Assembly (NCBI GenBank): GCA_046596135.1
Contig: JBKJMX010000001.1
Coordinates: 1,912 to 65,911 of the forward strand
Reading direction: 5' to 3'
Length of the DNA stretch: 64,000 bases
Origin: Gemmatimonadales bacterium
GTDB taxonomy: Bacteria; Gemmatimonadota; Gemmatimonadetes; Gemmatimonadales; GWC2-71-9
Below are positions 16,032-52,088 of the stretch, in pieces. The position numbers were made by a program, and so were the translations under genes. How positions within the stretch are numbered: the stretch's first letter is position 1; every line of letters starts with the position of its first letter. The notes beneath the pieces were generated by a model that was given only the letters and a program-made list of their open reading frames with translations, had not been told where the DNA came from and did not search any database.

Positions 16032-16070
16032 GGTGAATGATAAGGCGTGACCGCCCGTACATTTGAGTCC

Positions 16071-17297
16071 ATGTCGATCCGCCTCATGCACGTCGACCTG
16101 GATGCGTTCTTCGTGGAAGTGTGCCGCCGGCACGATCCCGCGCTGCGCGACGTCGACCTGCTGATCGTGGGCGGCCGGAAGGAATCCCGTGGTGTGGTGC
16201 AGTCGGCGAGCTACGGTGCCCGGAAGTTCGGGATCGGCGCCGGGATGCCGATTGCCCAGGCCGTCCGGCTCTGCCCCGACGCGACGTTCGTGCGCGGCGA
16301 GTTCCTCCGCTACCGCGAGGCGTCTCGTGCGGTGCACGACGTCCTGCTGCGGCATTCACCGAACGTGGCGATGACCGGCCTGGACGAGGGTTACCTCGAC
16401 TTCACCGGTACCGACCTGCTGTATCCGGTCTCGTTGCTCGATGCGGCGGAACGGGTGCGCAATGACATCAGCGCGACAACGAACCTGCACTGCTCGATCG
16501 GGATCGGGTCCAATCGGATGATCGCAAAGCTCGCGACCGACTTCGCGAAGCCGCGCGGGATCTGTGAAGTGCGCCAGGGATGGGAACGCGGTTTCCTGGC
16601 CGGACTACCGCTTGCCGCACTGCCGGGAGTGGGGCCTCGCGCCGCCGCCAGGCTGTCTGACCATGGATTGCTCGACGTCGCGCAGGTGCAGGCCCTGTCG
16701 CACGCCGAGCTGGCGCGGCTCGTGGGGGACGACGAGGCGACCCATCTGGCGCGACGGGCAGCCGGACACGGTGGGACGGTGCTCCGGGCGCAGGCGTTGC
16801 CGAAATCAATCAGTCGTGAGACGACCTTCTCCCGCGATGTGAGCGATCCCGCTGAACTCGACCGGGTGCTGCTGCTGCTGACGGCCCGCGTGGGCAACCA
16901 GCTCAGGGAGGAGGGGCTCGCTGCTGGCGGGGTGACGCTCAAGCTTCGCCACGCCGACTTCGTCACCGTCACCCGCAGCCGGACGTTCGCGACGCCGACG
17001 TCGATGGACGCCGAGCTGATCGGCGCTGCCCGCCCGCTCCTTCTGGACGCGTGGACCGGGGCCCGGGCCCGAGGCCAGACCGTGCGGCTCATCGGCATTG
17101 CCGCCGCGCGGCTCGGGCAATCGGAGGCCCCAGACCTCTTCGAGAGCGCGGCGAGCGGGAAACAGCGCGACGTTTCCGACGCGGTTGATGCGGTGCGCGC
17201 CAAGTACGGCTTCGACGCACTCGGCAGCGGCGGGCTGGTGCGCAAGCGGCCGCTCGATCATCGGGATCGCCGCCAGCAGCCCGACCCTGATCGGTGA
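16071..17297 (+). CDS. dinB: DNA polymerase IV (Y-family)
   Basis: MHVDLDAFFVEVC, SASYGARKFGIGAGMP and the overall Y-family layout. The start could also be 16047. Confidence 0.9.
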   Translation: MSIRLMHVDLDAFFVEVCRRHDPALRDVDLLIVGGRKESRGVVQSASYGARKFGIGAGMPIAQAVRLCPDATFVRGEFLRYREASRAVHDVLLRHSPNVAMTGLDEGYLDFTGTDLLYPVSLLDAAERVRNDISATTNLHCSIGIGSNRMIAKLATDFAKPRGICEVRQGWERGFLAGLPLAALPGVGPRAAARLSDHGLLDVAQVQALSHAELARLVGDDEATHLARRAAGHGGTVLRAQALPKSISRETTFSRDVSDPAELDRVLLLLTARVGNQLREEGLAAGGVTLKLRHADFVTVTRSRTFATPTSMDAELIGAARPLLLDAWTGARARGQTVRLIGIAAARLGQSEAPDLFESAASGKQRDVSDAVDAVRAKYGFDALGSGGLVRKRPLDHRDRRQQPDPDR

Positions 17298-17360: not shown

Positions 17361-17747
17361 ATGGCAACAGCAGAGGGGCGCACCATACCGTTCACCGGCG
17401 CCGAGGCAATCGACACGGCGGTGCTGGAGACCTTTCCGTACGACGGGCCGGAGCAGGAGATCTCGACGGTCACCAACGAGTTCTCAGCCGTCTGCCCCTT
17501 CAGCGGACTGCCCGATCAGGCGATGCTTACCCTGAAGTATGTGCCGAGCGATTGTTGCGTCGAACTCAAGAGCCTCAAGTACTACGTCATGAGTTATCGC
17601 AACGTCGGAATCTTCCAGGAACACGCCACGGCGCGACTCGCGGAAGACCTGCAACGAGTGCTGCGCGCGCGCATGCTCACGGTGACGACTCTGTACAACG
17701 TGCGTGGTGGTTTCGAGACGACGTGCAGCGTGACGATGAAGGGTTGA
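17361..17747 (+). CDS. queF: NADPH-dependent 7-cyano-7-deazaguanine (preQ0) reductase, type I
   Basis: FSAVCPFSGLPDQA catalytic Cys motif and ELKSLKYY...FQEH motif. 128 aa. Confidence 0.9.
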   Translation: MATAEGRTIPFTGAEAIDTAVLETFPYDGPEQEISTVTNEFSAVCPFSGLPDQAMLTLKYVPSDCCVELKSLKYYVMSYRNVGIFQEHATARLAEDLQRVLRARMLTVTTLYNVRGGFETTCSVTMKG

Positions 17748-17805
17748 AAGGTTGAAGGGTTGAAGGGTTGAAAGGTTGAAAGGTTGAAAGGTTGAAGGGT
17801 TGAAG
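17742..17805. repeat. tandem octamer array (GGTTGAAR) x8
   Basis: Eight head-to-tail units with last-base pattern A,G,G,A,A,A,G,G. A partial GAAG precedes them and a degenerate GGTGATGG follows. The queF stop TGA (17745-47) lies in unit 1, and the kinase GTG/ATG (17807/17810) lies in the degenerate last unit. Confidence 0.95.
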
Positions 17806-17806
17806 G

Positions 17807-19807
17807 GTGATGGTCCTCTGCTGCGGAGCCGCCGTGTCACTCTGGTCAGATCCGTCAGTTGTTGCTCTGCAGGAATCGCTCATCGGTCGCTATTCGCTGG
17901 AGCGCGAGCTCGGGCGAGGCGGGATGGCCGTGGTGTATCTCGCCCGTGATGTGAAGCTCGACCGGCCGGTGGCCATCAAGGTGCTCCACCAGCGTCTCTC
18001 CGCAGACCCGGGCGCACGCGAGCGCTTCGCGCGCGAGGCAAAGATCGCGGCGCGACTTTCGCATCCCCACATCGTCCCGATTTTCGCAGTCGAATCGACC
18101 CCGACACACGTCCTTATCGTCATGGCGGTGATCGATGGCGAGACGCTGGGCGCGCGTATCCGACGTCGCGGCGCGATGCCTGCGGATGAGGCCGAGCGAG
18201 TGCTGCGGGAGACGGCGTGGGCGCTGGGGTATGCGCACGCGCACGGCGTGATTCACCGAGATCTCACGCTCGAAAACATCTTGCTCGAGCGGGGGACCGG
18301 CCGGGCGCTGCTCGCTGATTTCGGGATTGCGGCGGAACGCGACGTCGCGGAGTCGGGACCGGTGTTCGGCACGCCGGGGTTTCTTGCGCCCGAAGTGATT
18401 CGGGGCGACCTCGTCGACCATCGTTCTGATGTCTACGCGCTTGGCGTGGTCGCCTGGACGGCGATCGCTGGCCGGGCGCCGTTCGTCGCCGAAACCAGCG
18501 CACAACTTCTTGCCAAGCACTTGTTGCAACCCGTGCCCTCGCTCGGCGAGCACGCCCGTGGGGTGTCGCGCCGACTCGCCACGACGATTGAGGCGTGCGT
18601 GGCGAAGGATGCCGATGCGCGCCCTCAGGACATTGCTGCGCTGCAGGCACTGCTCGAGCGCGCTCCGGAGCCCGTCGCGATTGCCCCGGCATTGCGCAAC
18701 TGGTTCACGCGGTGGGAGCGGATCCGACCGATGTACGCGCTGGCAACGCCGATCCTCGCGCTGCAAACGTGGCTGCTAGTCTGGGGATATCTCGAGTACC
18801 AGATCGGAAGCCTGCTCGTTGCGGCGGCGGTGTCGTCGGTCCTGACAATCACTGCGATCCCGCTCGTCGCACATCTCTGTTTCGAAGTGTCCGCACTGCG
18901 GTTGCTTCACAAGCTCGGATTCGGCGTGCACGACATCCGCGCCGCGTATCCATTGTGGCGGGAAGCGCTCGAACAGGAGCGCAGGCGCGATGGACTTCCC
19001 CCGTTGCCGGGCCGGGTCGTGTTCGACATGACGGTGTTTGGATTCGTCCTCATCGCGGTGGTGTTCGGGATCATCTTTCCCAACCTGCCCCGCTGGATCG
19101 ATCCGTCGCACCCGTCGATTTCCGTTCCGTACGTCCAGCGTGAGATCGTGAAGCTGATGAGCGCGGTCTACCTCGCGACACTGACCGGTGTCGGCATCGG
19201 CTTCGCATCCCCCGGCTTCCGGCTCCAACCGGGGGGGCGCTTCCGCCGCCTTGTCGAACGTTTCTGGAATTCGTCGCTAGCCGGCGGGATCACGCGGCTC
19301 GCCGGGGTGGGCCAGCGGGCCAGGCTCGCGGCATCATCGACCCTGCACCGGAACACGGAGCTCGTGCTTGGCCTCGCGGTCGACGACCTCTGGGGCGCGA
19401 TCCCGCCACACCTCCGCGAAGGCCTTGGCGACGTTCCTGCACTCGCGCACACCCTTCAGGCCGCAGCGACGGAGCTGAGGGCATTGACCGATCAACTCGC
19501 CACAGCGAGTGACGCGCTGCCGACTGGTCATGAGGAGATCGGGAAGCTGGCGATGACGCGAGACGTGGTCGACGCGCGGCACCGAGAGGCGGTGACGGCC
19601 CTCGAGCGGATCCGCCTGCAGTTATTGAGGCTCGTCGCAAGCCGACAGCAGACCTCCGACCTGACGAGCCAATTGGAGGCCGCCCGGTCGCTCGAAGGTG
19701 ACCTGCTTCGAGAACTCGCAGGCCACGGCGAGGTCCGGCGCATGCTGAGACGCCCGCGGTCGAACCGAGGCGGCCTCTCCGCAACCCCTGCCGAGACACC
19801 CGCATGA
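17807..19807 (+). CDS. membrane Ser/Thr protein kinase, paralogue 1 (kinase + 4 TM + helical C-terminal domain)
   Basis: GRGGMAVVY, VAIKVL, HRDLTLENILLE, ADFGIA and LAPEV kinase motifs, then four hydrophobic helices and a coiled-coil-like tail. The start may be the ATG at 17810. Confidence 0.9.
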   Translation: MMVLCCGAAVSLWSDPSVVALQESLIGRYSLERELGRGGMAVVYLARDVKLDRPVAIKVLHQRLSADPGARERFAREAKIAARLSHPHIVPIFAVESTPTHVLIVMAVIDGETLGARIRRRGAMPADEAERVLRETAWALGYAHAHGVIHRDLTLENILLERGTGRALLADFGIAAERDVAESGPVFGTPGFLAPEVIRGDLVDHRSDVYALGVVAWTAIAGRAPFVAETSAQLLAKHLLQPVPSLGEHARGVSRRLATTIEACVAKDADARPQDIAALQALLERAPEPVAIAPALRNWFTRWERIRPMYALATPILALQTWLLVWGYLEYQIGSLLVAAAVSSVLTITAIPLVAHLCFEVSALRLLHKLGFGVHDIRAAYPLWREALEQERRRDGLPPLPGRVVFDMTVFGFVLIAVVFGIIFPNLPRWIDPSHPSISVPYVQREIVKLMSAVYLATLTGVGIGFASPGFRLQPGGRFRRLVERFWNSSLAGGITRLAGVGQRARLAASSTLHRNTELVLGLAVDDLWGAIPPHLREGLGDVPALAHTLQAAATELRALTDQLATASDALPTGHEEIGKLAMTRDVVDARHREAVTALERIRLQLLRLVASRQQTSDLTSQLEAARSLEGDLLRELAGHGEVRRMLRRPRSNRGGLSATPAETPA

Positions 19808-21759
19808 CTCCCGACGATACTTCGGACCTCGAGCGCCTGCAGGACGCGCTTGCAGGGATCTGGTCGATCGAGCGCGAGATCGGCCGCGGCGGGATGGGCG
19901 TGGTCTACCAAGCGCGCGATGTCGCCCTCGACCGACCCGTGGCGATCAAGCTCCTTCATCCTTCCCTTGCGCGCGATTCAACGCAGCGGGAACGCTTCCT
20001 TGTTGAGGCCCGGACCGGCGCACGCCTCTCGCATCCGCACATCGTGCCGGTCTATGCCGTCGAGGAACGAACCGATTTCGTGTACTTCGTGATGGCGTTG
20101 ATCGATGGCGAGTCGGCGGGAGAGAAGCTTCGCCGCGAGGGGCCGATGGAAGCGCCGGAGGTCGAGCGGATCCTGCGCGACATCGGCTGGGGGCTGGCGT
20201 ATGCGCATGCGATGAACCTCGTGCACCGCGATGTCACGCTGGACAACATCCTCATCGAACGAAGCACAGGCAGGGCGGTGCTCGCCGATTTCGGCATTGC
20301 GTCCGAGATCGACCAGCTGGATCGTGGCCCGCTGATCGGTACGCCTGCGTACCTGGCGCCGGAAATCATCCAAGGTGAACCGCCGACACCCCTGAGCGAC
20401 CTGTACGCCCTGGGCATCGCCGGGTGGAGCATGCTCGCAGGCCGTCATCCCTTCATTGCTGACGACACTCCATCACTGCTGCTGATGCATGTCACCGAGG
20501 TCGCACCGCTCGTGAGCAAGGCGGCCCCGCGCACGCCCTCGAGGCTAACGCGCGCGATACAGAATGCCCTCGAAAAAGATCCCTCCGTGCGCGCGGGGTC
20601 GACGGAGGAGTGGGTCGAATCACTGGGGGGCGGCACGAGCATGGCGGCACTTGCGGACCCGCTCCGTCAATGGCTCGGACGGTGGGAGCGTGCGAAGCCG
20701 TTCTACGCACTTGGCATGAGCGTTCTTGCGATGCTCACGGCGAAGGCGGCGGCCGACTTGCTGAACGCAGTCACGTATTTTGGTCCCTACTTCCGCGGCA
20801 ACTGGAGCGCCTTTTTCACGATGATGATCGATTCGGGCATCAAGGTGCTCGGCGGCGTACTCCTGATTCACGCAGGCCTGGAAGTCATGGCGCTCCGCCG
20901 CCTTGCCGCCCGGGGATACGGCATCAAGGACATCCGACTCGTGCTGGCAAGGAACCGCGAGGAATTGCGCAGGTCACCGCCGGCGCCAGCGTCGCTGCTG
21001 GCGAGGGTGGTCCACGACCTCGGATGGCTGGCGGGCGGGCTGTACGTGCTGCTGGCGGTGTCGATCTTGAAGTATCTGTGGCTGTTCATGCCCACGGGAT
21101 ATGACTACCTCCCCCTCTTCTACTTTATCCACAGCATCGGACAATGGGCGTACGTCGCGTTCTGGTCGGCGCTCGGGTTCTCGTTCCTCATGCCCGTATT
21201 CCGGTTCACCGATGACAGCTTGTTCACTCGCGCGCGCGCAAGGCTCTGGAATTCGGCTTTTGGAGTCGCCGCGCTTCGCCTTGCGGCATTTCGCGTCGTC
21301 CGCGCCGACGACACATCCCACACGCTGCACCGTCCCACTGAACTGGTACTCGACCTTGCGATCGAAGATCTATGGCGTGAGTTGCCAGTCGAGACCCGCC
21401 GTGGGCTCGGAGACATACCAGCGCTGGTGGAGACACTTCGGCGCCGCATTTCGGCCGTGAGAGACACCGAGCGCCTCGTCGATGAGTCATCGATCGAGCG
21501 CACCGACGCGATACGGGACATGCGCCTGCGCCTAGCCGAGCGCCATCATGCCGGGGTCAGAGCCCTCGAGCGGATCCGGCTCCTCCTCGCTCAGCTGGGG
21601 TCTGCCGCTGCGCCCCTCGGCGAGTTCACCGCACAACTCGAAGATGCGCGCGCGGTCGAACGCTCGCTGCTGGAAGAACTCGGCGCGCACCCCGGTTTGT
21701 GGAAGCAGTTGAAATCCGGACTGCGAAATGCGTCGCCAACGCCAACGCCAGCTGGATGA
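19804..21759 (+). CDS. membrane Ser/Thr protein kinase, paralogue 2
   Basis: ATGA overlap with paralogue 1. GRGGMGVVY, VAIKLL, HRDVTLDNILIE, ADFGIA and LAPEI motifs. Same post-kinase architecture and shared motifs (RWER.KP.YAL, HR.TELVL, GLGD.PAL, ALERIRL). Confidence 0.9.
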   Translation: MTPDDTSDLERLQDALAGIWSIEREIGRGGMGVVYQARDVALDRPVAIKLLHPSLARDSTQRERFLVEARTGARLSHPHIVPVYAVEERTDFVYFVMALIDGESAGEKLRREGPMEAPEVERILRDIGWGLAYAHAMNLVHRDVTLDNILIERSTGRAVLADFGIASEIDQLDRGPLIGTPAYLAPEIIQGEPPTPLSDLYALGIAGWSMLAGRHPFIADDTPSLLLMHVTEVAPLVSKAAPRTPSRLTRAIQNALEKDPSVRAGSTEEWVESLGGGTSMAALADPLRQWLGRWERAKPFYALGMSVLAMLTAKAAADLLNAVTYFGPYFRGNWSAFFTMMIDSGIKVLGGVLLIHAGLEVMALRRLAARGYGIKDIRLVLARNREELRRSPPAPASLLARVVHDLGWLAGGLYVLLAVSILKYLWLFMPTGYDYLPLFYFIHSIGQWAYVAFWSALGFSFLMPVFRFTDDSLFTRARARLWNSAFGVAALRLAAFRVVRADDTSHTLHRPTELVLDLAIEDLWRELPVETRRGLGDIPALVETLRRRISAVRDTERLVDESSIERTDAIRDMRLRLAERHHAGVRALERIRLLLAQLGSAAAPLGEFTAQLEDARAVERSLLEELGAHPGLWKQLKSGLRNASPTPTPAG

Positions 21760-21764
21760 CGAAG

Positions 21765-21820
21765 GGTTGAAGGGTTGAAAGGTTGATGGGTTGAAGGGTT
21801 GAAAGGTTGAAAGGTTGAAA
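21765..21820. repeat. tandem octamer array (GGTTGAAR) x7
   Basis: Seven units, one of them variant (GGTTGATG). Starts 6 nt after the kinase-2 stop, in the convergent spacer before the glycosyltransferase stop (21864). Same unit and same lead-in (TGACGA..AGGGTTGAA) as the 17742 array. Confidence 0.95.
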
Positions 21821-21863
21821 TGGGATGGCTGAAAGCGAGACAGCCAACGACCAACGACCCGCT

Positions 21864-23129
21864 TCACCCGTTCCCACCGAGCACCATCTCGATCTCGTCG
21901 CATGCCCCGCCCACTCCATCTTCGCGCCGCACAATCTCACCGACCGCTTCGGCACGACTCCGGATGCTTTCATCGCCGAGCAACGCGGAAAGGTGCCGCG
22001 ACACGCGGGCGGCTCGGTACCGCGAAGGGTACGTCACGCGCGCCACGCCCAGCTCCCGCGCACGATACGCGTTGTCCGGCTGATCGTTGCCATGCGGCAC
22101 CACCAGCATCGGCACCCCAGCCGCCAACGCATGATGCAGTGTTCCCATGCCGCCGGGATGCACCACTGCCGCGGCGCGAGGCAGCAGCTCCGCGAACGGA
22201 GCGACGGGCATCACATGCACCGAGGTCGGCAGAGTCAGTGGAACGTTGCGCTCATGACCGCCAGTGACCAGCACCGCCCGAACCCCGAGACGCTCCGCCG
22301 CCGCAATGCTCTCGGTGTAGAACGCACCCGCGACCGACACCGCCGTCGACCCCAGGGTGAACACCACGGGCGCGGGCCCATCATCAAGAAACGCCATCGT
22401 GGCAGGGTCGAGTTCTACCCCGCCGTTCGCACTGTGGAAGATCGGCCCGGTCACCTGCGTGCGAGCGGGCCAGTCCGGCTGCGGTTTCGCAAGCACCCGT
22501 GAGAAGAGCGCCAACACTCCAGCCGGCGAGTGCTGCCCCTCGAAGAGCGGGTTGCGCCCCGGCGGAAGCCCGCGCTGTGCACGAAGCCGGGCCACTGGCG
22601 CTGACCAGCTCCGGCTCGCCGCTCGCGCTCCCGCCACGAGGGAACGCGAGAACCCCGGCACCCGGTGCAGCTTCCTGAGCCATGGAGCGGGCGGCACCAC
22701 CGGGAGGTCATGCGCGGAGAAGAACGAGATCGGGGAGAGGACGGTGGAGATCCACGGCAGCCCCAGCTCCTCCGCCACGACCGGACCTGCGAACGTGATC
22801 GGGTGCGTGATGAGGAGGTCGAACTCGGGAGCCGCGGCGCGGAGGTCATCAAACGACTCCTGTAACGCGCCCATCAACAGCGTGCGAATCAGATACCGCG
22901 TGCCCAACACTGGGCTGGTGATCCGCCGAACGGTGTCGATGTCTGACGGGTCGACGTCAGGCCGAATCGGGATGCACCGGATTCCGGCTGCCTCGATGTA
23001 CCCGCGATAGAACGCACTGGTCGCGATCGCAGGGACGTGACCCCGAGCCTTGAGGCCGAGCGCGAGTCCGACAAATGGATTGATGTCGCCGAAGGAACCC
23101 AGGGTGGTAAGGAGGATGCGGGAGGGCAT
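21864..23129 (-). CDS. GT1-family (UDP-glycosyltransferase/MGT-like) glycosyltransferase
   Basis: N-terminal ILLTTLGSFGDINPFVGLALGLKARGH and C-terminal donor-binding HPGGMGTLHHALAAGVPMLVVPHGNDQPDNA. Confidence 0.85.
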   Translation of the reverse strand: MPSRILLTTLGSFGDINPFVGLALGLKARGHVPAIATSAFYRGYIEAAGIRCIPIRPDVDPSDIDTVRRITSPVLGTRYLIRTLLMGALQESFDDLRAAAPEFDLLITHPITFAGPVVAEELGLPWISTVLSPISFFSAHDLPVVPPAPWLRKLHRVPGFSRSLVAGARAASRSWSAPVARLRAQRGLPPGRNPLFEGQHSPAGVLALFSRVLAKPQPDWPARTQVTGPIFHSANGGVELDPATMAFLDDGPAPVVFTLGSTAVSVAGAFYTESIAAAERLGVRAVLVTGGHERNVPLTLPTSVHVMPVAPFAELLPRAAAVVHPGGMGTLHHALAAGVPMLVVPHGNDQPDNAYRARELGVARVTYPSRYRAARVSRHLSALLGDESIRSRAEAVGEIVRREDGVGGACDEIEMVLGGNG

Positions 23130-23156: not shown

Positions 23157-23205
23157 GGAGAACGGAGAACGGAGAACGGAGAGCGGAGAACGGAGAACGG
23201 ATGAC
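23157..23205. repeat. tandem heptamer array (GGAGAAC) x7
   Basis: Units: GGAGAAC x3, GGAGAGC, GGAGAAC x2, GGATGAC. Followed at 23214-23234 by (CNTACGG) x3. Lies in the divergent spacer between the GT1 start (23129) and the acyl-CoA dehydrogenase gene. Confidence 0.95.
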
Positions 23206-23281
23206 CGATGCGGCTTACGGCGTACGGCCTACGGCTAGCGAAGGGCTGGACAGGGTCGGCAGGAGGCAGCAACTTGCCCCC

Positions 23282-34875: not shown

Positions 34876-35096
34876 GTCGGGAATGTAGCGGACGGCGGAT
34901 GGGGGGGCGAAAGCACTGGCCCAGGGCCGGTCCGACGCGGCGATGTCGGGGACAGCGCCGCCCAAGCGTCTACATTGTGACGAAGGTTCAGCGCACTCAT
35001 TCGTGCCGTGAGATGTCACCACCGGCCCCGCACCCCGCCGGCGTTGGGCGGAGCACGTTCTTTCCCGTGAATGCTGTGCCCATGCCTGGAGAGTTA

Positions 35097-38000
35097 ATGG
35101 TTTCACGCGCGCCCGGCTGGACGACTGACGACAGCACGCTGCAGGACCCGATCCGCGCGGAGCTGTTCGGCCCCGAGCGGCTGGAGCAACACGCGGCGTC
35201 GCTGGCGCACGCGCAGCAGGTCACCCGGATCGCGATCAAGGGGGGCCCGCTCCTCGAGCGGGTGCGCGACAACCGGCGGGTCCTCCGCGCCATGCAGGCG
35301 CAGATCGCCGAGGCGGTCACCGACGAGCGATGGATCACGCCGTCCGCGGAATGGCTGCTCGACAACTTCTACATCGTCGACGAACAGCTCCGGGAAATCC
35401 GGGACGACCTTCCGCAGGGTTTCTACCGCGAGCTGCCCAAGCTGATCGATGGCCCGCTTGCCACCCTGCCCCGCGTCTACGGGATCACCTGGGCATTCAT
35501 CGCACATACCGACAGCCGGTTCGATCCCGACCTGCTCATCCGGTTCATTGATTCATACCAGCGCGTCGATCCGCTGACGATCGGCGAGCTCTGGGCGATC
35601 GCGATCACGCTTCGCGTCGTCCTCGTGGAGAACCTCCGGCGGTGTGCCGAGGCAATCGCGCGGAGCATGCACGAACGCGAGCGGGCCGATCGCCTCGCCG
35701 ATGAGCTGCTCGGGGCCGAGGGTGACCAGGCGTCGACCTCTGCCGCACTGCTCCAGCGCTACGAAGACATCCCGATCTCGCGGGCGTTCGCGGTCGAACT
35801 GGTGATGCGGCTGCGGGACCGCGATCCCGCCGCCACCCCGGCGCTGAAGTGGCTCAACGAGCGGCTGACCCGGGAGGGATCGTCGGCGGACGATCTCGTC
35901 AACGAGGACCACCACCGTCAGGCAGCGATGACCGTGACGGTGCGCAACATCATCACGAGCATGCGCCTGGCGTCGGCGTTCGACTGGGCCGTGTTCGTCG
36001 AGCGGGTGAGTCTCGTTGACGAGCTCCTCCGTACCCACCCGACCTATCCGGCCATGGATTTTGCGAGCCGTGATGCCTACCGGCATGCGATCGAGGACCT
36101 CTCCCGCCGATCCAGCCGATCCGAACTGGAGGTGGCGCGCGAGGCATTGCGGCGGGCCGACCCCGCCGGGGAAGCGCCGGGCGGGATCGCACGCGATGCC
36201 CGGCAGGACGACCCGGGCTATTACCTCTTCGGCCGCGGGCGACGCGAGTTCGAGCACGAGGTTGGATACCACCCGTCGGCCATGCGTCGCATCTTCCGCG
36301 CGTACCTCGACGTGGCGGTGCCGGGCTACCTCGGGTCGATCGTTGTGCTCACGGCGGTGGTCCTTGCCATCCCCATCGTGCTGGCCCGCTCTGCGGGGGT
36401 GGCGCCATTCGATCTGGTGGTGCTGGCGCTCCTCGCGCTGATCCCCGCGTCTGATCTCGCTATTGCGCTGCTCAACCGGAGCGTGACGGCGATCGTGCCG
36501 CCCTCGCTGCTACCCCGTCTCGAGCTCAAGAACGGCATCCCGCTGGAACTGCGCACCCTCGTCGTCATCCCGACCCTCCTCACGTCTCCTGAGGAGATCG
36601 AGGAGACGGTCGAGCGCCTCGAGGTGCACTACCTCGCCAACCCTGACGGCGATGTGCACTTCGCAATCCTCTCCGACTGGACCGACGCGGCCACCGCACG
36701 GATGCCTGGCGACGAGGCCATGCTCAGTGCCGCGCAGCGCGGTATTGCCCGACTCAACGCGCGCCATGGCGAGGTCCGATTTCACCTGTTGCACCGGCGT
36801 CGGACGTGGAACGGGAGTGAAGGCACGTGGATGGGGTGGGAGCGGAAGCGGGGAAAGCTGCACGAACTCAACCGGCTGCTCCGCGGCGCCACCGACACCA
36901 CGTTCGTATCGGTTGACGGCAGCCCGGTCGCTGCGCCGCAAGGCGTGCAGTACATCATCACGCTGGATAGCGACACCCGGATCCCGATCGATGCCGTGGC
37001 GGGCCTTGTGGGCACGATGGCTCATCCGCTCAATCGTCCGCTCTTCGATGATGCCAGCCGTCGCGTGGTCGATGGATACGCCATCCTGCAGCCGCGTGTG
37101 ACGCCCCCGCTGCCTGGCCGCGCCGGCTCGCTCTACCAGCAACTGGTGTCGGGCTCGCCCGGGATCGACCCATACGCGTCGGCGATCTCCGATGTCTACC
37201 AGGACATCTTCGGCGAAGGATCGTTCACCGGAAAGGGGATCTACGACCTCGACGCGTTCGAGGCGGCGCTGGCAGGGCGGGTGCCGGAGAATCGCCTGCT
37301 CAGCCACGATCTCTACGAGGGGATCTTCGCCCGCGCCGGGCTCGTCACCGACATCGAGGTGTTCGAGTACGCACCCGCGAGCTACACCGTTGCCGCCGCG
37401 CGCCAGCATCGGTGGGTCCGTGGCGACTGGCAGCTCCTGCCGTGGTTGTTCGCACGCGGCCTGCCGCTTGTGGCCAGATGGAAGATCCTCGACAACATGC
37501 GGCGCTCACTCTCCGCCCCTTCCGCCTTCCTGACGATCGTGCTGGCGTGGAGCCTCGCCGACGTCGCACCAATGCGATGGATGCTGTTCATCCTGGCGAC
37601 CATTGTCATTCCCGCACTTATCCCGGTGGCTGCTGGCGTGGTTCCCCGCGGCCGCGGGATCTCGAAGCGAAGCCATGTCCGCGCCGTGCGGCGCGACCTC
37701 GAGGCCGCCGGTTGGCACACCGCCGTCACCGTGACCATGCTGGCGCACCAGTCATGGGTCATGGGGGATGCGATACTGCGGACGCTGGGTCGCGTGATCA
37801 TCACGCGTCGCCACCTGCTGCAGTGGACCACGGCGGCGCAATCGGCGAATAGCCATCGCAACCGCATCCGGGACTTCATGGGTCGGATGGCCGGCGCGCT
37901 CGTCCTCACCGCCGCCGCAACCGTCGCGGTGGCATGGAACCAGGCTCCCCGCTGGCAGACGGCCGTTCCACTCCTCCTGCTGTGGGCGTTCTCGCCGGTG

Positions 38001-41000
38001 ATCGCACATGCACTCAGCATCTCGCAGCTCAGCGCCCGTACCACCGCCGTCTCCGATGCTGACGCCCGCACGCTTCGCCTGATCGCGCGGCGGACCTGGC
38101 GATTTTTCAGCACGTTCGTCACGGCCGGCGACAGATGGCTCGCGCCCGACAACTTCCAGGAGACCCCGCAGCCGGTCGTCGCGCACCGCACGTCACCGAC
38201 GAACATCGGCCTGTCGCTGCTGGCGAACGTCTCGGCCCGCGACTTTGGCTGGATCGGATCGGTGACCATGCTCGACCGTCTCGAGGCCACCCTCTCCTCG
38301 GTCAGGCGTCTGGAGTTCTGCCGCGGCCACCTCTACAACTGGTACGAGACCACCGAAGGGCGGGCGCTGGAGCCACGGTACATCTCATCGGTCGACAGCG
38401 GCAACTTCGTCGGCTGCCTGATCGCCACCGGCAACGCCTGTCGCGAACTGCTCGATCGACCCGCCATGCCGACGTCCTCGATGACCGGTATCCTCGACAC
38501 GGTGGACCTGCTGCGCCGGGCGGTGCGCAACGTGGGCGATCACGCCGACGTCGAGCGAAACGTGCGGCGCCGGATCGACGAGCAGATGGCCCGGATCATG
38601 GAACGCGCGGCCGTCGCCGCCGTGACGCCGCATGATCAGGTAGCGCGGCTCGAAGCGCTCTCCGTCGATGCCCGCGCCCTGCTCGACATGGCGGAGGCAG
38701 CCGGCCTGCAGTCGGTGGGGGAGCACGACGTGGCGGCGTGGGCCGGCGCCCTCATCGACGATGTGGCGAGCCAGCTCATGGATTTCGACCGCCTCGCGCC
38801 GTGGGTGCGGCTTCGACTGGGCGGCGCCGCCAACGCCTTTGCCCCGCTGCTCGCCGGTCCCACGCTCGCGGAGCTGCCGGCGCGCTGCACGCTGGTCGCG
38901 CGCTCGCTGGCGGCCCTCCGGGCCTCGGGCGATGCCGCGCCCCTGGACGTCGACCTCGAAAGTCTCGGGATCGCCGTCGAGCAATGTGAGCGCTCGGCGC
39001 GATCCCTGGTGATTCGGATCGCGGCGCTCGCCTCGGACACGACGCGGATGGTCGATGCGACGGAGTTCGGCTTTCTCTTCGATCCGCTGCGCAAGCTCTT
39101 CTCGATCGGATACCGTGTCGCCGAGGATTCGCTCGACCCCGGTCATTACGACCTCCTCGCCTCCGAGGCACGCCTGCTCAGCTACATCGCCATCGCGAAG
39201 GGCGACGTACCCGTCGAGCACTGGTTCCGGCTGGGCCGATCGCTGACGCCCGTGGGCCGTGACTCGGTGCTCATGTCGTGGTCGGGATCGATGTTCGAGT
39301 ACCTCATGCCGGCGCTGCTGATGCGAACCCCCGTGGGCAGCCTGATCGAGCAGACCTGCCGCTTGGTGGTGAATCGCCAGATCGCGTACGGCGAGGAGCG
39401 CGACATCCCATGGGGCGTGTCGGAATCCGGGTACAGCGCGCGCGATCTCGAGATGACGTACAAATATTCCGCCTTCGGCGTCCCCGGACTCGGCCTGAAG
39501 CGGGGACTCGGCGACGCGATCGTGATCACCCCGCACGCCACCGGTTTGGCATCGATGATCGACCCTGGCGAGGCGGCACGGAACTTTGCCGAGCTGCGAC
39601 GGGTGGGTGCATCCGGTCCCTATGGCTTTTACGAAGCCGTGGATTTTACCGCCTCCCGTCGCCCGCCAGGCGAGCGGGGTGCCGTCGTGCACAGCTACAT
39701 GGCGCACCACCAGGGCATGATGCTGGTGGCGATCACCAACGCGCTCCATGATGGCGCGATGCGCTCACGCTTTCATGCGGAGCCGATGGTGCAGGCGTCC
39801 GAGATGCTCCTGCAGGAACGGACACCACGCGATGTCGCGGTGGCGCGCCCACGCGTCGAGGAGTTCACGGCGGTCGGCGATGTCCGCGAGTCGGTGCCAG
39901 CAGTGTCGAGAACGTTCTCGTCGCCACACGGCACCACGCCCCGAACCCATTTGCTCTCCAACGGCCGGTACGCCGTGATGCTCACCTCGGCCGGGGGGGG
40001 ATACAGCCGGTGCAATGGACTCGCCGTAACCCGCTGGCGAGAGGACGTCACGTGCGACGACACGGGCTCGTTCGTGTTCCTGCGCGACACGGAGAGCGGC
40101 GAATCCTGGTCTGCCGCGTTCCAGCCCTCAGCTCGCGAGGCATCGGCGTGGGAACTCGCCTTCCAGGAGGATCGAGCGGAGCTCAGCCGACGTGATGGTA
40201 GCATGACCACCCGCCTCGAGGTCATCGTATCGGCTGAGGACGATGCCGAACTGCGGCTCGTCTCACTCACCAACCATGGACGCACCACCCGCGACATCGA
40301 CGTGACGTCGTATGCAGAGGTCGTCCTGGCCCCCCATGCCGCCGACGTGGCCCACCCCGCGTTCTCGAACCTGTTCGTCAGCACCGAGGTGGTGAGCGAG
40401 GCGAATGCGCTCCTGGCGACACGCCGGCAACGATCACCCGACGATCCCGAGGTGTGGCTGGCGCACGTGGTGGCGACATCCGACGGAAGCGACACGATGC
40501 AGTGGGAGACTGATCGGTACCGCTTCGTGGGCCGGGGCAACACTCTCCGCACGGCCGACGGGGCGGTGAGCGGGCGCCCACTGTCCAACACGACGGGGCC
40601 CGTGCTCGATCCGATTGTGAGCCTGCGCCGACACGTGACCATCCGTCCCGGGCGCACCGTCCGCCTCTGCTTCTCGACCATGGTGGCGGAATCGCGGGAC
40701 GCGGTCCTCGACCTGGCCGACAAGTACCAGGACCTCACGATCTTCGAACGGGCCGGCACACTCGCGTGGACACGCGCCCAGGTCCAGATGCACCACGTCG
40801 GCATCGGTCCCAACGAGGCACACCTCTTCCAGGAGCTCGCCGCCCCGCTGCTCTATGCGGATCGAGCGATGCGGGCACCTGCCGCGATCATCGCGCGACA
40901 GCACGGCGGCGCGTCGATGCTCTGGCCGCACGGCATTTCAGGCGACCTCCCGCTGGTGCTGGTGACGATCGAAGACGCGGAGGATGTCGGGCTGATCCGT

Positions 41001-43784
41001 CAATTGCTGCGCGCCCACGAATACTGGAAGATGAAGCGCCTCGCGGTCGACCTCGTCATCCTGAATGAACGGGCACCGTCATACGTGCAGGACCTGCAGC
41101 TCACCCTCCAGACGATGTTGCGGGCAAGTCCGGCGGTGGCGCCCGGTGGCGGGGCGGAGGTTCCCAGCGGGACCTACCTGCTGCGGGCCGAGCAACTCAC
41201 GGAGGTGCAGCGCGACGTCCTGTTCGCATCCGCCAGAGTCATCCTCTCCGCGCGACGTGGCACACTGGCCGACCAGGTCGGACGGGTCCGGTCGACGACG
41301 GTTGCCGCCCCCATCTCGACCGTTTCCCCGCGGGCTCCGTTGCGCGCGCCCGACCCGGTACCTTCCGGACTGGATGGCCTCGCGTTCGCGAACGGACATG
41401 GCGGATTCACTGCTGATGGACGCGAGTATCTCATCACGACCTCGGTGGCTCGCCCGACCCCGCTGCCCTGGATCAACGTGCTGGCCAACGAATCGTTCGG
41501 GGCGCTGGTATCCGAGGCCGGCGCCGGCTCGACCTGGGCACGGAACAGCCAGAGCAATCGCCTCACGTCGTGGTCGAACGATCCCGTCACTGACCCGCCG
41601 CCGGAAGTGATCTATCTGCGCGACGCCGACAGCGGCAATGTGTGGACGCCCACTGGCGCGCCGATGGCGGGATGGAGCGGGTCGTGCGAGGTGGGGCATG
41701 GCGCCGGATACACCCGCCACCGCCGCCGCGTCGACGGCCTCGACCACGAACTGGTGCAGTTCGTGGCGGTGGACGACCCAGTCAAGGTTTCGCGTCTCAC
41801 CGTGCACAACCCCGGTGGGCGCTCGCGGGGACTGTCGGTCACTGCCTACGTGGAATGGGTTCTTGGCACGACACGCGACGCGACGTCGCAGCACCTTGTC
41901 ACCGAGCTCGACGCTGCAACGGGCGCGCTGTTCGCCCGGAATCCGTGGCACCCCGACTACGCCGCGCATGTCGCCTTCGCCGACCTCGCCGGCGCCCAGG
42001 AGTCCGTCACCGGCGACCGCACCGAATTCCTGGGCCGCAATGGCTCGGTGACCCAGCCGGCCGCCCTCCGGCGCGATGCTGCACTGTCGAACAAGGTGGG
42101 CGCCGGTCGGGATCCGTGCGGTGCGCTGCGGTGTAACCTGGTCATCCCGGCCGGCGAGTCGCGGTCCGTGACCTTCCTGCTCGGCCAGGCCCCGGACGCG
42201 GCCGCTGCGTCAGCGCTGGTTGCCCGGGTGCGCGCCAAAAATGTCGACGCGATGCTGCACGCGGTCATTGCGCAGTGGGACGCGGTACTCGGTGCGCTGC
42301 AGGTGCAGACGCCCGAGCCGTCATTCGACGTGATGATCAACCGATGGCTCCAGTATCAGGTGCTCGCGTGTCGCCTGTGGGCCCGCGCGGCGTTCTACCA
42401 ATCGAGCGGTGCATACGGATTTCGGGACCAGTTGCAGGACGTCATGGCTCTGCTGGCGAGTCGGCCTGATCTGGCCCGTGACCAGGTGCTCCGGGCGGCG
42501 TCGAGGCAGTTTGTGGAGGGCGACGTACAGCACTGGTGGCATCCGCCCTCGGGACGCGGGGTGCGCACACGCTTCTCGGATGACCTGCTGTGGCTGCCGT
42601 TTGTCACGATGCAATACCTCCGCGTCACGGCCGACGCGCCGGTGCTCAATGCAATCGTGCCGTTCATCGAGGGCCCGGCGCTCGCTCCTGGGCACATGGA
42701 GGCGTATTTCGAGCCACGCCTCTCCGGTGAGAGCGCCAGCATCTATGAACATTGCGCACGCACTATTGACCGCAGTCTCGCCGTCGGTGCCCATGGCCTT
42801 CCGCTGATCGGTGCGGGCGACTGGAACGACGGCATGAGCCGGGTCGGCGTGGAAGGCCGCGGTGAAAGCGTCTGGATGGGATGGTTCCTTCACACCATCC
42901 TGGCAGATTGGGTGGCGGTTGCCGCGGAACGGGGTGAGGCCGAGCGCGCCCGGGCGTGGAGCGATCACCGCGATTCGCTCGCGTCGGCACTCGAGACAGC
43001 GGGTTGGGACGGGGCCTGGTACCGCCGTGCCTACTTCGACGACGGCACGCCGCTCGGTTCCGCCACCAACGACGAATGCCAGATCGACGCCATCGCGCAA
43101 TCGTGGAGTGTGATCTCGGGGGCCGGCCTTCCGGATCATCAGGCGCAGGCCATGGCGTCGCTCGATGAACGACTCGTGCGACGTGATGACAGCCTCATCC
43201 TGTTGCTGGCGCCCCCCTTCGACGAGACGCAACTCGAACCGGGGTACATCAAGGGATACCTGCCGGGGATCCGGGAGAATGGCGCGCAGTACACCCACGC
43301 CGCCGCCTGGGCAGTGATCGCCCGCGCAATGCTCGGCGACGGCGACATGGCGATGGAGTACTTCAACTTGATCAATCCCGTGCGGTTGACCGGAACGCCG
43401 GCGGATGCGGCGCGTTACATGGGCGAACCGTATGCGCTGGCGGGCGACGTGTACTCGACCACGCCCCACATCGGCCGGGTCGGCTGGAGCTGGTACACGG
43501 GGTCGGCATCCTGGCTCTATCGCGCCGGCACGGAATTCATCCTCGGGTTCACCCTTCGCGGCGACCGGCTGATCGTTGATCCGTGCATTCCGCGCGACTG
43601 GCCGGAGTTCACGATGACCTACCGGCATGCAACCAGCACGTACCAGATCCGCGTCGTGAATCCTGGCGGCGTCAATCGCGGGGTCCGGTCGATGACAGTC
43701 GAAGGCGAGATTGGTGATCACGTTGCAGGTCTGCAACTGATCGATGACGGAACCACCCGTCATGTCGAGATCGAGCTCGGTTGA
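35097..43784 (+). CDS. cyclic beta-1,2-glucan synthase (NdvB/ChvB/Cgs-like; GT84 + GH94-type domains)
   Basis: 2895 aa. GGAGAG lies 4 nt upstream of the ATG at 35097. N-terminal [21 protein letters not shown] helices flank a GT domain (ITLDSDT...SHDLYEG...[10 protein letters not shown]). The C-terminal part is like glycosyl phosphorylase (GH94). Confidence 0.88.
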
Positions 43785-51985: not shown

Positions 51986-52088
51986 TCAGTCGTCAGTCGT
52001 CAGCTACCCTCGTCGCGAAGGCCGGCATCCCTGAGGAGCGCCGGCCTTCATGCTGCGCAGACGCAGCAAACGACTGACGACTGACGAC
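51986..52088. repeat. inverted heptamer arrays enclosing two hairpins (convergent gltA/speA spacer)
   Basis: The (TCAGTCG)x2.5 array at 51986-52003 is the reverse complement of (CGACTGA)x2.5 at 52071-52088, giving 15-nt perfect arms (51989-52003 / 52074-52088). Inside are hairpins GAAGGCCGGC..GCCGGCCTTC (52017-52049) and TGCTGCG-CAGA-CGCAGCA (52051-52068). Confidence 0.9.

Follow-up and report, generated by a model that had tools for sequence, protein, structure and literature searches.

Arrays of the octamer GGTTGAAR beside queF and two kinase genes of a Gemmatimonadales bacterium: probable slippage-prone intergenic repeats

Heptamer simple sequence repeats (SSRs) have been described with the units GGGAATC in Xanthomonas and GGGGA(C/T)T in Nostoc PCC 7120 (Rehm et al. 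2015, PMC4692102), and direct repeats of the heptamer TAACTGA are found in Beggiatoaceae, cyanobacteria and some Bacteroidetes (MacGregor 2015, PMC4679880). Cyanobacteria also have short tandemly repeated repetitive (STRR) heptamers, and large, GC-rich genomes of non-pathogens show a general excess of 5-11-nt repeats (Mrazek and co-workers, cited in PMC4692102; Huang and Mrazek 2014, PMC4060949). Units of 4-11 nt escape suppression, and mismatch repair acts weakly once a loop exceeds 3 nt (PMC4060949). Here we analyse a window, that is, a whole stretch of 64,000 nucleotides, from a GC-rich (67%) soil Gemmatimonadales bacterium, in which arrays of the octamer GGTTGAAR stand at either end of a pair of Ser/Thr kinase genes. 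We put at about 60% the probability that these arrays are slippage-prone intergenic SSRs of the known 7-8-nt class and not a functional pair.

Two octamer arrays and the genes they adjoin

The features of the locus, and two further repeat sites of the window, are as follows.

17361-17747, + strand: queF (preQ0 reductase; Pfam QueF, E=2.6e-23)
17734-17741, + strand: degenerate lead-in unit CGATGAAG, from the in-register unit listing
17742-17805, + strand: array 1, (GGTTGAAR)8, which provides the queF stop
17806-17813, + strand: degenerate unit GGTGATGG, containing GTG 17807 and ATG 17810, probably not the true start of kinase 1
17825-17828, + strand: Shine-Dalgarno GGAG of kinase 1, conserved in an alignment of relatives
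17834-19807, + strand: Ser/Thr kinase 1, 657 aa from GTG 17834 (Pkinase, E=1e-45)
19804-21759, + strand: Ser/Thr kinase 2, paralogous to kinase 1 over its full length (40% identity)
21757-21764, + strand: lead-in unit TGACGAAG, containing the kinase-2 stop (unit listing)
21765-21820, + strand: array 2, (GGTTGAAR)7, in the spacer where the kinase-2 and glycosyltransferase genes converge
21821-21828, + strand: degenerate unit TGGGATGG (unit listing)
21864-23129, - strand: EryCIII/UDPGT-like glycosyltransferase (Pfam), convergent with kinase 2; the related locus L208 has a glycosyltransferase too
23157-23236, + strand: further arrays of the same class, (GGAGAAC)6.4 and (CGGCTTA)3.7, in the spacer between glycosyltransferase and acyl-CoA dehydrogenase
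51986-52088, strand not assigned: inverted heptamer arrays (TCAGTCG)n and (ACGACTG)n round a GC hairpin, between convergent genes

An earlier, sequence-only reading had described the two arrays as direct repeats of eight and seven units, and both the unit listing and Tandem Repeats Finder bear this out. The program places array 1 at 17737-17808 (period 8, 9.0 copies, 93% matches, score 116) and array 2 at 21761-21819 (period 8, 7.4 copies, 90% matches, score 90). Array 1 opens with GGTTGAAA, followed by units ending in AAG, AAG, AAA, AAA, AAA, AAG and AAG; in array 2 the endings run AAG, AAA, then the unit GGTTGATG, then AAG, AAA, AAA, AAA. The longest stretch identical between the arrays, which lie in direct orientation, is 33 nt. 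A double-unit pattern allowing at most 2 mismatches matches the window 14 times, against 0.04 expected from shuffles, and leaves no remnant outside the two arrays anywhere in the 64 kb. Independent Logan contigs from other soil runs terminate within the arrays and have identical outer units, which rules out an assembly artefact; short-read assemblies break at both arrays. The lead-in sequence claimed to be common to both arrays is so for TGACGA, the remainder being degenerate units that match in part: in register, CGATGAAG and TGACGAAG are identical at 6 of 8 positions, as are GGTGATGG and TGGGATGG. This likeness of the terminal units hints at copying and not at independent birth of the arrays. 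A CRISPR array, dismissed in the earlier reading as well, would need repeats of ~23-50 nt that alternate with unique spacers of about the same size; here 8-nt units abut directly.

Array 1 holds the queF stop in its first unit (TGA 17745-17747), as had been stated, and writes the last queF codons (…V T M K G stop). The QueF C-terminus is rewritten by the array: close relatives end in …TLTTNADG, …TLTTRVEGLKG or …TLKG, among others, and these ends vary even inside a 90% identity cluster.

The same reading had put the kinase start in a degenerate ninth unit, where the longest open reading frame does open (GTG 17807 or ATG 17810), and had taken array 1 to be the whole queF-kinase spacer. In relatives, the start is the codon homologous to GTG 17834 (ATG in L208, L126 and L127; GTG in L206), and L206 has GGTTGAGG, with no ATG, at the position of the ninth unit. 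Homology and the conserved GGAG thus place the predicted start of kinase 1 at GTG 17834, which gives 657 aa, as in the Logan gene calls, against 665 aa in the public record. Because the start lies there, array 1 does not fill the spacer but occupies ~70% of its 86 nt. The spacer measures 10-18 nt in more distant relatives, and its greater length here probably loosens translational coupling between queF and kinase 1. The number of units alters only the distance between the queF stop and the ribosome site of kinase 1: with the conserved GGAG-N5-GTG lying beyond the array, spacing within the ribosome site is unaffected, and the suggestion that copy number tunes coupling or expression of the kinases is not borne out. 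The start of kinase 2 overlaps the kinase-1 stop (ATGA), and array 2 begins 6 nt past the kinase-2 stop (stop 21757-21759, array from 21765), in agreement with the earlier reading.

As RNA, the arrays are unstructured (z = +1.29 and -0.54); over both arrays and both strands, folding is no better than in shuffled sequences (z from +1.29 to -0.63). They match no Rfam family at the gathering score and carry no promoter-like site, terminator-like sites occur at chance level only, and the spacer into which kinase 2 and the glycosyltransferase converge has no predicted hairpin terminator. We therefore rejected a terminator hairpin or REP-like element (no fold above shuffles), a riboswitch or small RNA (no such fold, no Rfam match) and a promoter built from the TTGAAA hexamers (no sigma-70-like site found). 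A phase-variable contingency locus was rejected likewise, since array 1 lies outside the open reading frame, between the queF stop and GGAG-N5-GTG, and has no promoter-like site. The inverted pair at 51986-52088 does fold as RNA (-71.9 kcal/mol, z = -5.4) and is a hairpin-forming variant of the intergenic repeat class.

Orthologous sites and the two-kinase unit

The gene order SpoU/HIBADH/DinB/QueF/STK1/STK2/…/ACAD is found without octamer arrays in L121, L125, L127, L129, L137, L126 and L130. The presence of queF-kinase 1-kinase 2 in these array-free relatives shows that the kinases are ancestral and form no cassette; the arrays are recent gains, limited to close relatives, on an older gene order. 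Among genus-level relatives (L206, L207, L208, L212), the arrays resize and swap boundaries, variants and unit type. At the queF/kinase-1 junction, L206 has 10 octamer units in another variant pattern, L207 an octamer array with a different left junction, and L208 a heptamer array, (GATGGAT)8. L212 has a unique, L208-like spacer at this site and an octamer array with another junction at the kinase-2 end, where L208 is without the octamer. The kinase-2 stop of relatives carries GGATGAGAGG, and their queF stop carries a GGATGAT heptamer array. The instability in copy number that had been proposed from the repeats is thus seen between genomes, as 8(+1) versus 10 units, a heptamer, other junctions and empty sites.

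Loci anchored on QueF hold 1.4 arrays per 10 kb, and the unit is shared in 7 of 24 array pairs within a locus, compared with 6.4% between loci. L208 has ~2.5 GGAGAAC units at the site orthologous to the GGAGAAC array of the window, and in L130 the QueF reading frame reads through a GAGAGAC array. The queF 3' end bears an array in ~12% of relatives, which fits a rough estimate of ~10% of intergenic regions in the clade, and we rejected this gene end as a special hot spot.

The direct orientation of the arrays and their 33-nt identical stretch raise the possibility, put forward in the sequence-only reading, that recombination between them deletes or duplicates the 4-kb two-kinase unit; with deletion or tandem duplication, kinase copy number would vary. 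The number of kinases between queF and the acyl-CoA dehydrogenase gene does vary, from none in L120 and L136 through two in most relatives to four in L127, and kinases 1 and 2 are old tandem paralogs. However, octamer arrays are absent from the junctions of L127, L120 and L136, the kinases are present in array-free relatives, and arrays occur singly in L212 and in L206/L207. Stretches of 33 nt are near the lower limit for RecA-type exchange. Moreover, the depth of the cassette equals that of its flanks in three metagenomes (14.4 versus 14.7, 75.2 versus 75 and 8.75-9.8 versus 7.4). The locus occurs in 18 runs, none of them RNA, as k=31 contigs, which collapse the arrays; recombinant junctions are invisible in such contigs, because with a shared stretch of 33 nt a recombinant yields no new 31-mer. 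Cassette recombination is not supported, and we consider it very unlikely. An excisable or mobile cassette was rejected on the same depths, on kinases standing at the site without arrays and on the lack of any recombinase gene from dinB to the acyl-CoA dehydrogenase gene; insertion of the kinases into one split array was rejected because queF-kinase adjacency is widely conserved without arrays. For the kinases, the arrays are no sign of special regulation or mobility.

Distribution and placement of GGTTGAAR arrays

Scanning a genome collection with the real unit, using a pattern that demanded at least 4 units, we found more than 117 GGTTGAAR array loci in many phyla. More than 100 genomes carry them, beside genes that are unrelated to one another, and the PVC and FCB phyla supply 76% of these genomes. 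Flavisolibacter ginsengisoli DSM 18119 is one carrier, and the GST locus of Pectobacterium/Brenneria has the array too. The assembled genome JBDSMU01 (86% identical) has three octamer loci (L206, L111, L113), and several further assembled genomes have 3-6 each. Repeat periods at these loci are 8 (146), 7 (50), 9 (7) and 6 (1). The ubiquitous intergenic filler that the sequence-only reading had set against its own proposals is what we find: the neighbouring genes share no common function, and there is no bias to kinases or queF. In viral contigs the real unit had 2 matches and two permuted units had 4 and 0, too few to judge specificity. The array string, in any register, had no match in a literature search.

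Placement follows a rule: the G-rich, TGA-bearing strand begins at the stop of its 5' neighbour gene or within a few bases of that stop. With this strand up, 67 of 97 arrays abut an ORF on the left and 25 of 97 on the right; in the low-GC subset the figures are 26 and 8 of 46, and low-GC arrays that abut a gene end do so on the sense strand in 18 cases and on the antisense strand in 4. Only 5-7 of ~120 arrays lie between divergent genes. Both arrays of the window start at a sense-strand stop or 6 nt after it.

Such strand-specific and constant position at gene ends, for an octamer found in many phyla, is what would be expected if the transcribed repeat were a 3' UTR or leader element that sets mRNA stability, translation or coupling, with (GGUUGAAR)n or its complement either a multivalent platform for an RNA- or DNA-binding protein (S1-, Csp- or CsrA-like) or, where R = G, a G-quadruplex. 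The quadruplex idea concerns (GGGTTGAA)4, with (AGGTTGAA)4 as the comparison form. Each array contains four GGG tracts, and the loops between them measure 5, 29 and 5 nt in array 1 and 5, 13 and 5 nt in array 2; related heptamers are transcribed and form G-quadruplexes in vitro (PMC4692102), and a translational regulator has been suggested to act at the TAACTGA repeats (PMC4679880). However, the A form of the unit (AGG), which has no GGG tract, accounts for about half of the arrays (51 versus 62), so that a G-quadruplex is not a general property of GGTTGAAR arrays. Close relatives do not keep the same type of unit at orthologous sites, where L208 has a heptamer or nothing, the neighbours of the arrays share no function, and no function was found for the published relatives of the repeat either (PMC4692102). 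We regard a cis-acting RNA element as possible but doubtful.

The arrays might instead have been selected as insulators. As the sequence-only reading pointed out, every + frame contains TGA and the three - frames stay open, so that ribosomes on the + strand would be halted directly behind queF and kinase 2 whatever their frame; (YUUCAACC)n on the - strand, which is free of G, rich in C and unstructured, would load Rho and end glycosyltransferase or antisense transcripts. The preference for sense-strand gene ends among low-GC arrays agrees with such a role, as do the unfolded state of both strands and the convergent spacer with no predicted hairpin terminator. Yet the stop-codon bias could be a survival filter on arrays and not a function, and many arrays of the class have no stop codons, among them GGAGAAC in the window and GAGAGAC in L130. 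This role is improbable in our judgement.

Slippage-prone intergenic repeats account for the near-perfect spacerless units, the several loci per genome, the placement rule and the variation at the same gene pair. Arrays would form and change length through slippage at replication or through unequal exchange, with poor mismatch repair of their long loops, and would have been seeded on unit-like sequence round stop codons such as the GGATGAGAGG and GGATGAT sites of relatives. Their orientation would be tolerated because it is harmless to translation: the upstream ORF is ended in every frame, no secondary structure is formed and GGAG-N5-GTG is left intact. Slippage alone leaves the recurrence of one unit at many genome sites and in many phyla unexplained, and the strand-asymmetric placement could reflect a selected function and not mere tolerance.

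It is conceivable, though unlikely, that (GGTTGAAR)n is a true cross-phylum family, mainly of PVC/FCB bacteria, that is installed sequence-specifically or kept by a conserved partner, and not a set of slippage products born independently. Candidates would be template switching, with existing arrays as donors and unit-like seeds as targets, a polymerase that works from a template, or a binding protein that is mobile and picks out "good-enough" sites. If so, the array would be a strand-specific RNA element that follows stop codons or precedes start codons, and at this locus would uncouple kinase translation from queF.

For the slippage-prone repeats that we favour, the consequences are practical. 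Arrays rewrite protein ends (QueF …TMKG here, …TLTTNADG in a close relative), lure gene callers to overlong starts and break short-read assemblies at gene boundaries. They offer ready length markers for telling apart strains of uncultured soil Gemmatimonadales and of PVC/FCB bacteria, and a single orthologous site that is octamer, heptamer, shifted-junction or empty in different relatives gives a small natural series for array birth and turnover.

Comparison with known repeat systems

With the contingency loci of Haemophilus and Neisseria the arrays have in common slippage-prone units that are not multiples of three and lie near gene ends. Unlike those loci, they lie outside the ORF and not between -35 and -10; a change in unit number does not turn kinase 1 on or off, as the array ends before both its ribosome site and its start codon.

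The STRR and other long-unit repeats are likewise genome-wide and intergenic, and are ascribed to polymerase slippage combined with weak repair of long loops. The arrays differ from STRR in unit sequence and in their Gemmatimonadales and PVC hosts, which are not described in the literature searched.

The TAACTGA repeats (PMC4679880) also present one short unit in distant phyla with no visible transfer mechanism, carry stop codons that fall in all frames through a period that is not a multiple of three, and abut gene starts. They are mostly of 2-6 copies, forward and directly upstream of start codons, whereas GGTTGAAR arrays mostly run from the stop of the upstream gene.

The most extensive likeness is to the repeats of PMC4692102: spacerless head-to-tail units of 7-8 nt at many loci per genome with a strong non-coding bias, a G-rich strand with an ORF directly at its 5' side, whether the stop of a sense-strand gene or the start of an antisense one, scarcity between divergent ORFs, inverted pairs able to form hairpins, length and sequence that vary at the same gene pair, and no tie to gene function or mobile elements. 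GGTTGAAR differs in being a purine-rich octamer with a GGG tract only when R = G, in showing no preference for four units (copy numbers range over 4-8 in a scan that needed at least 4), and in its hosts, mainly PVC/FCB bacteria as opposed to Xanthomonas and cyanobacteria. The octamer is a new addition to this known class of slippage-prone intergenic repeats, and such long-unit SSRs litter the intergenic spacers of this Gemmatimonadales lineage and of many PVC/FCB bacteria.

The octamer arrays and the kinase-1 start

Arrays and genes considered in the window:
16047-17297, dinB-like gene
17361-17747, queF
17742-17805, + strand, array 1, eight exact GGTTGAAR units by direct reading
After queF, Ser/Thr kinases 1 and 2, full-length paralogs with overlapping stop/start
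21765-21820, + strand, array 2, seven units by direct reading, one of them GGTTGATG
21864-23129, - strand, EryCIII-like glycosyltransferase
23157-23236, (GGAGAAC)6.4 and (CGGCTTA)3.7, in the 154-nt divergent glycosyltransferase/acyl-CoA dehydrogenase spacer
From 23284, acyl-CoA dehydrogenase
34899-43784, + strand, one 2961-aa ORF
51986-52088, inverted heptamer arrays (TCAGTCG)n … (ACGACTG)n flanking a GGCCGGC hairpin, between convergent genes

Both arrays are present as the sequence-only reading described them. Tandem Repeats Finder places array 1 at 17737-17808 (period 8, 9.0 copies, 93% matches, score 116) and array 2 at 21761-21819 (7.4 copies, 90% matches, score 90), and all 14 matches to a double-unit pattern with ≤2 mismatches (0.04 expected) fall within them, with no double-unit remnant elsewhere across the 64 kb. 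The queF stop (TGA 17745-17747) does lie inside unit 1 of array 1, the kinase-2 stop being at 21757-21759, and frame reading bears out that the arrays place TGA in all three + frames and leave the - strand open in all three. Independent soil-run contigs terminate inside the arrays with identical outer units, and the arrays are therefore not assembly artefacts. RNA folding of both arrays on either strand is no better than that of shuffled sequence (z +1.29 to -0.63), neither an Rfam family nor a promoter-like site is found at the arrays, and terminator-like sites there are at chance level only. The RNA fold of 51986-52088 (-71.9 kcal/mol, z = -5.4) looks like a bidirectional terminator made of tandem units.

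Kinases 1 and 2 are 40% identical over ~660 aa. Several soil metagenomes contain the locus at 99-100% identity, whereas it occurs in no RNA run, and NCBI names in the QueF 90% identity cluster are those of Gemmatimonadales assembled genomes. The longest kinase-1 ORF begins at GTG 17807/ATG 17810, within the degenerate “ninth unit” where the start had been placed. Orthologs and a conserved GGAG five bases upstream point instead to GTG 17834: among compared loci from other genomes or metagenomes, the homologous codon is ATG in L208, L126 and L127 and GTG in L206, and the ninth-unit ATG is not conserved because L206 has GGTTGAGG in place of the window’s GGTGATGG. On this homology and the GGAG, the public annotation (665 aa, NCBI record) probably starts too early, GTG 17834 giving the 657 aa of the Logan gene calls. 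Counted to GTG 17834, the spacer from the queF stop is 86 nt, and array 1 occupies most of it rather than the whole, as had been claimed; the predicted ribosome site is ordinary unique sequence past the array. At the homologous start, the kinase-1 orthologs at L125 3392-3420 and L129 612-640 carry ATC behind a GAGG motif instead of ATG, GTG or TTG.

Gene order and turnover in relatives

A QueF-anchored scan of metagenome contigs yielded 80 loci. The nearer ones (L121, L125, L126, L127, L129, L130 and L137) keep the order SpoU/HIBADH/DinB/QueF/kinase1/kinase2/…/acyl-CoA dehydrogenase without any octamer array, and on this ground we rejected the view of the kinases as a cassette. Only 10-18 nt separate the queF stop from the kinase-1 start in L123, L125, L129 and L137, and a kinase directly follows QueF even in more distant relatives with other gene order. 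Kinase number varies, L120 and L136 having none and L127 four in a row, with no octamer at these junctions. Depth over the two kinase genes agrees with flank depth in three metagenomes, represented by k=31 contigs in which a deletion or duplication recombinant yields no new 31-mer. The proposal that the arrays are recombination substrates for a kinase cassette is thus unsupported: gene order is kept without arrays, depths are equal, the longest identical stretch common to arrays 1 and 2 is 33 nt and relatives carry the octamer at the two sites in varying combinations.

The adjacency of queF to one or two Ser/Thr kinases (window 17361-21759, L121, L125, L127, L129, L137, L143, L145, L183 and L188) is conserved in many Gemmatimonadales-like soil contigs, and the queF-linked kinases carry a long C-terminal part (~390 aa) without a Pfam match.

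QueF C-termini differ within the 90% cluster (…TMKG, …TLKG, …TLTTRVEGLKG, …TLTTNADG, …TLTTHADG, …TLRADDR), so the array region rewrites the protein end. L206 (JBDSMU010000100.1), which matches the window at 86.5% identity across 9.8 kb, has ten octamer units of another variant pattern (GATG, GAGG) to the window’s eight, and the anticipated variation in unit number is accordingly seen between genomes. The L207 array begins after TTGACGACGCG, a different junction. L208 (JACDBX010000046.1) carries the full set of five genes, glycosyltransferase included, with (GATGGAT)8 and a 70-nt unique spacer at the queF junction and, in place of the octamer, an inverted GGCCGTA-type hairpin at the kinase-2 end, while L212, with the kinase pair at 92.6% identity, has an L208-like unique spacer before kinase 1 and an octamer array one base past the kinase-2 stop. 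The four lineages are about equidistant (81-86% identity in kinase 1), and the octamer’s occurrence in different combinations at the two sites argues against a coupled pair. Each window array has GATGG at its right edge, and the motif recurs inside array 2 and L206; together with the GATGGAT of L208, this suggests that a heptamer array was replaced by the octamer or gave rise to it. Array 2 could have been seeded by the unit-like GGATGAGAGG that L208 has around its kinase-2 stop.

Over the 455 kb of QueF-anchored loci, chosen without regard to repeats, there are 63 arrays with units of 7-8 nt (1.4 per 10 kb). Array pairs within a locus have a common unit (≤1 mismatch) in 7/24 cases, versus 6.4% between loci, so a genome-preferred unit recurring a few kb apart is normal here. 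L208 has ~2.5 GGAGAAC units at the site orthologous to 23157-23236. At L130 1370-1416, (GAGAGAC)6.7 lacks stop codons, and the QueF ORF reads through it and acquires a repetitive tail up to the next stop.

Spread of the unit and known repeat classes

A search for four units in succession, with each species represented by a single genome, returned at least 117 stretches. By record titles, 52 of the matches listed are from Verrucomicrobiota, Lentisphaerota, Kiritimatiellia or Planctomycetota and 37 from Bacteroidota, Rhodothermales or Gemmatimonadales, the remainder being from Chloroflexota, Acidobacteriota, various Proteobacteria and others; several assembled genomes among them have three to six octamer loci each. 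The L206 genome has two further ones (L111 and L113) at unrelated genes. In 794 kb of listed loci, repeat periods cluster at 8 (146 rows) and 7 (50) and are hardly ever 6 or 9; numerous other units occur there too, as do numerous inverted pairs of arrays. Array bins in soil metagenomes stand at 18-20x flank depth, indicating many other such arrays in those soils.

With the G-rich strand on top and ORFs of ≥100 aa counted, 67/97 arrays among the matches listed adjoin an ORF on the left (51 ending, 16 starting on the other strand) and only 25/97 on the right; for listed loci of <55% GC, which yield few spurious ORFs, the same tally gives 26/46 and 8/46. Divergent gene pairs around the listed arrays are rare. 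The genes ending at them are functionally unrelated (SufBD, GST, NrdD, LpxK, ROK, MFS, DEAD helicase, GGDEF and others) and include no kinase or queF, as fits the possibility, also raised from the sequence, of a widespread filler without bias to these genes.

An Acidobacteria assembled genome (L040 6450-6528, L047 21-140, L084 8-190) has octamer arrays within a repeated element whose ends are inverted, CCCACCCAG-(GGTTGAAG)n … CTTCAACC-CTGGGTGGG, with 9 and 16 units in paralogous copies. The Lentisphaera assembled genome CAMCSH01 (L003, L011, L071, L086) has arrays of 3-5 units per copy embedded in a multi-copy leader upstream of paralogous genes beginning MKKSF.

The array string had no match in the literature searched, and a regulatory role is a possibility. 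The class of such repeats is already known, and the GGTTGAAR octamer is a new member of it. TAACTGA repeats are common to distant phyla (MacGregor, PMC4679880), and repeats with units of 4-11 nt show no suppression, which has been tied to weak mismatch repair of loops >3 nt (Huang and Mrazek, PMC4060949). The GGGAATC/GGGGAYT heptamers of Xanthomonas and Nostoc (Rehm et al., PMC4692102), like the GGTTGAAR arrays, have no functional theme or known role, and resemble them in placement rule, in rarity between divergent ORFs and in variability between relatives.
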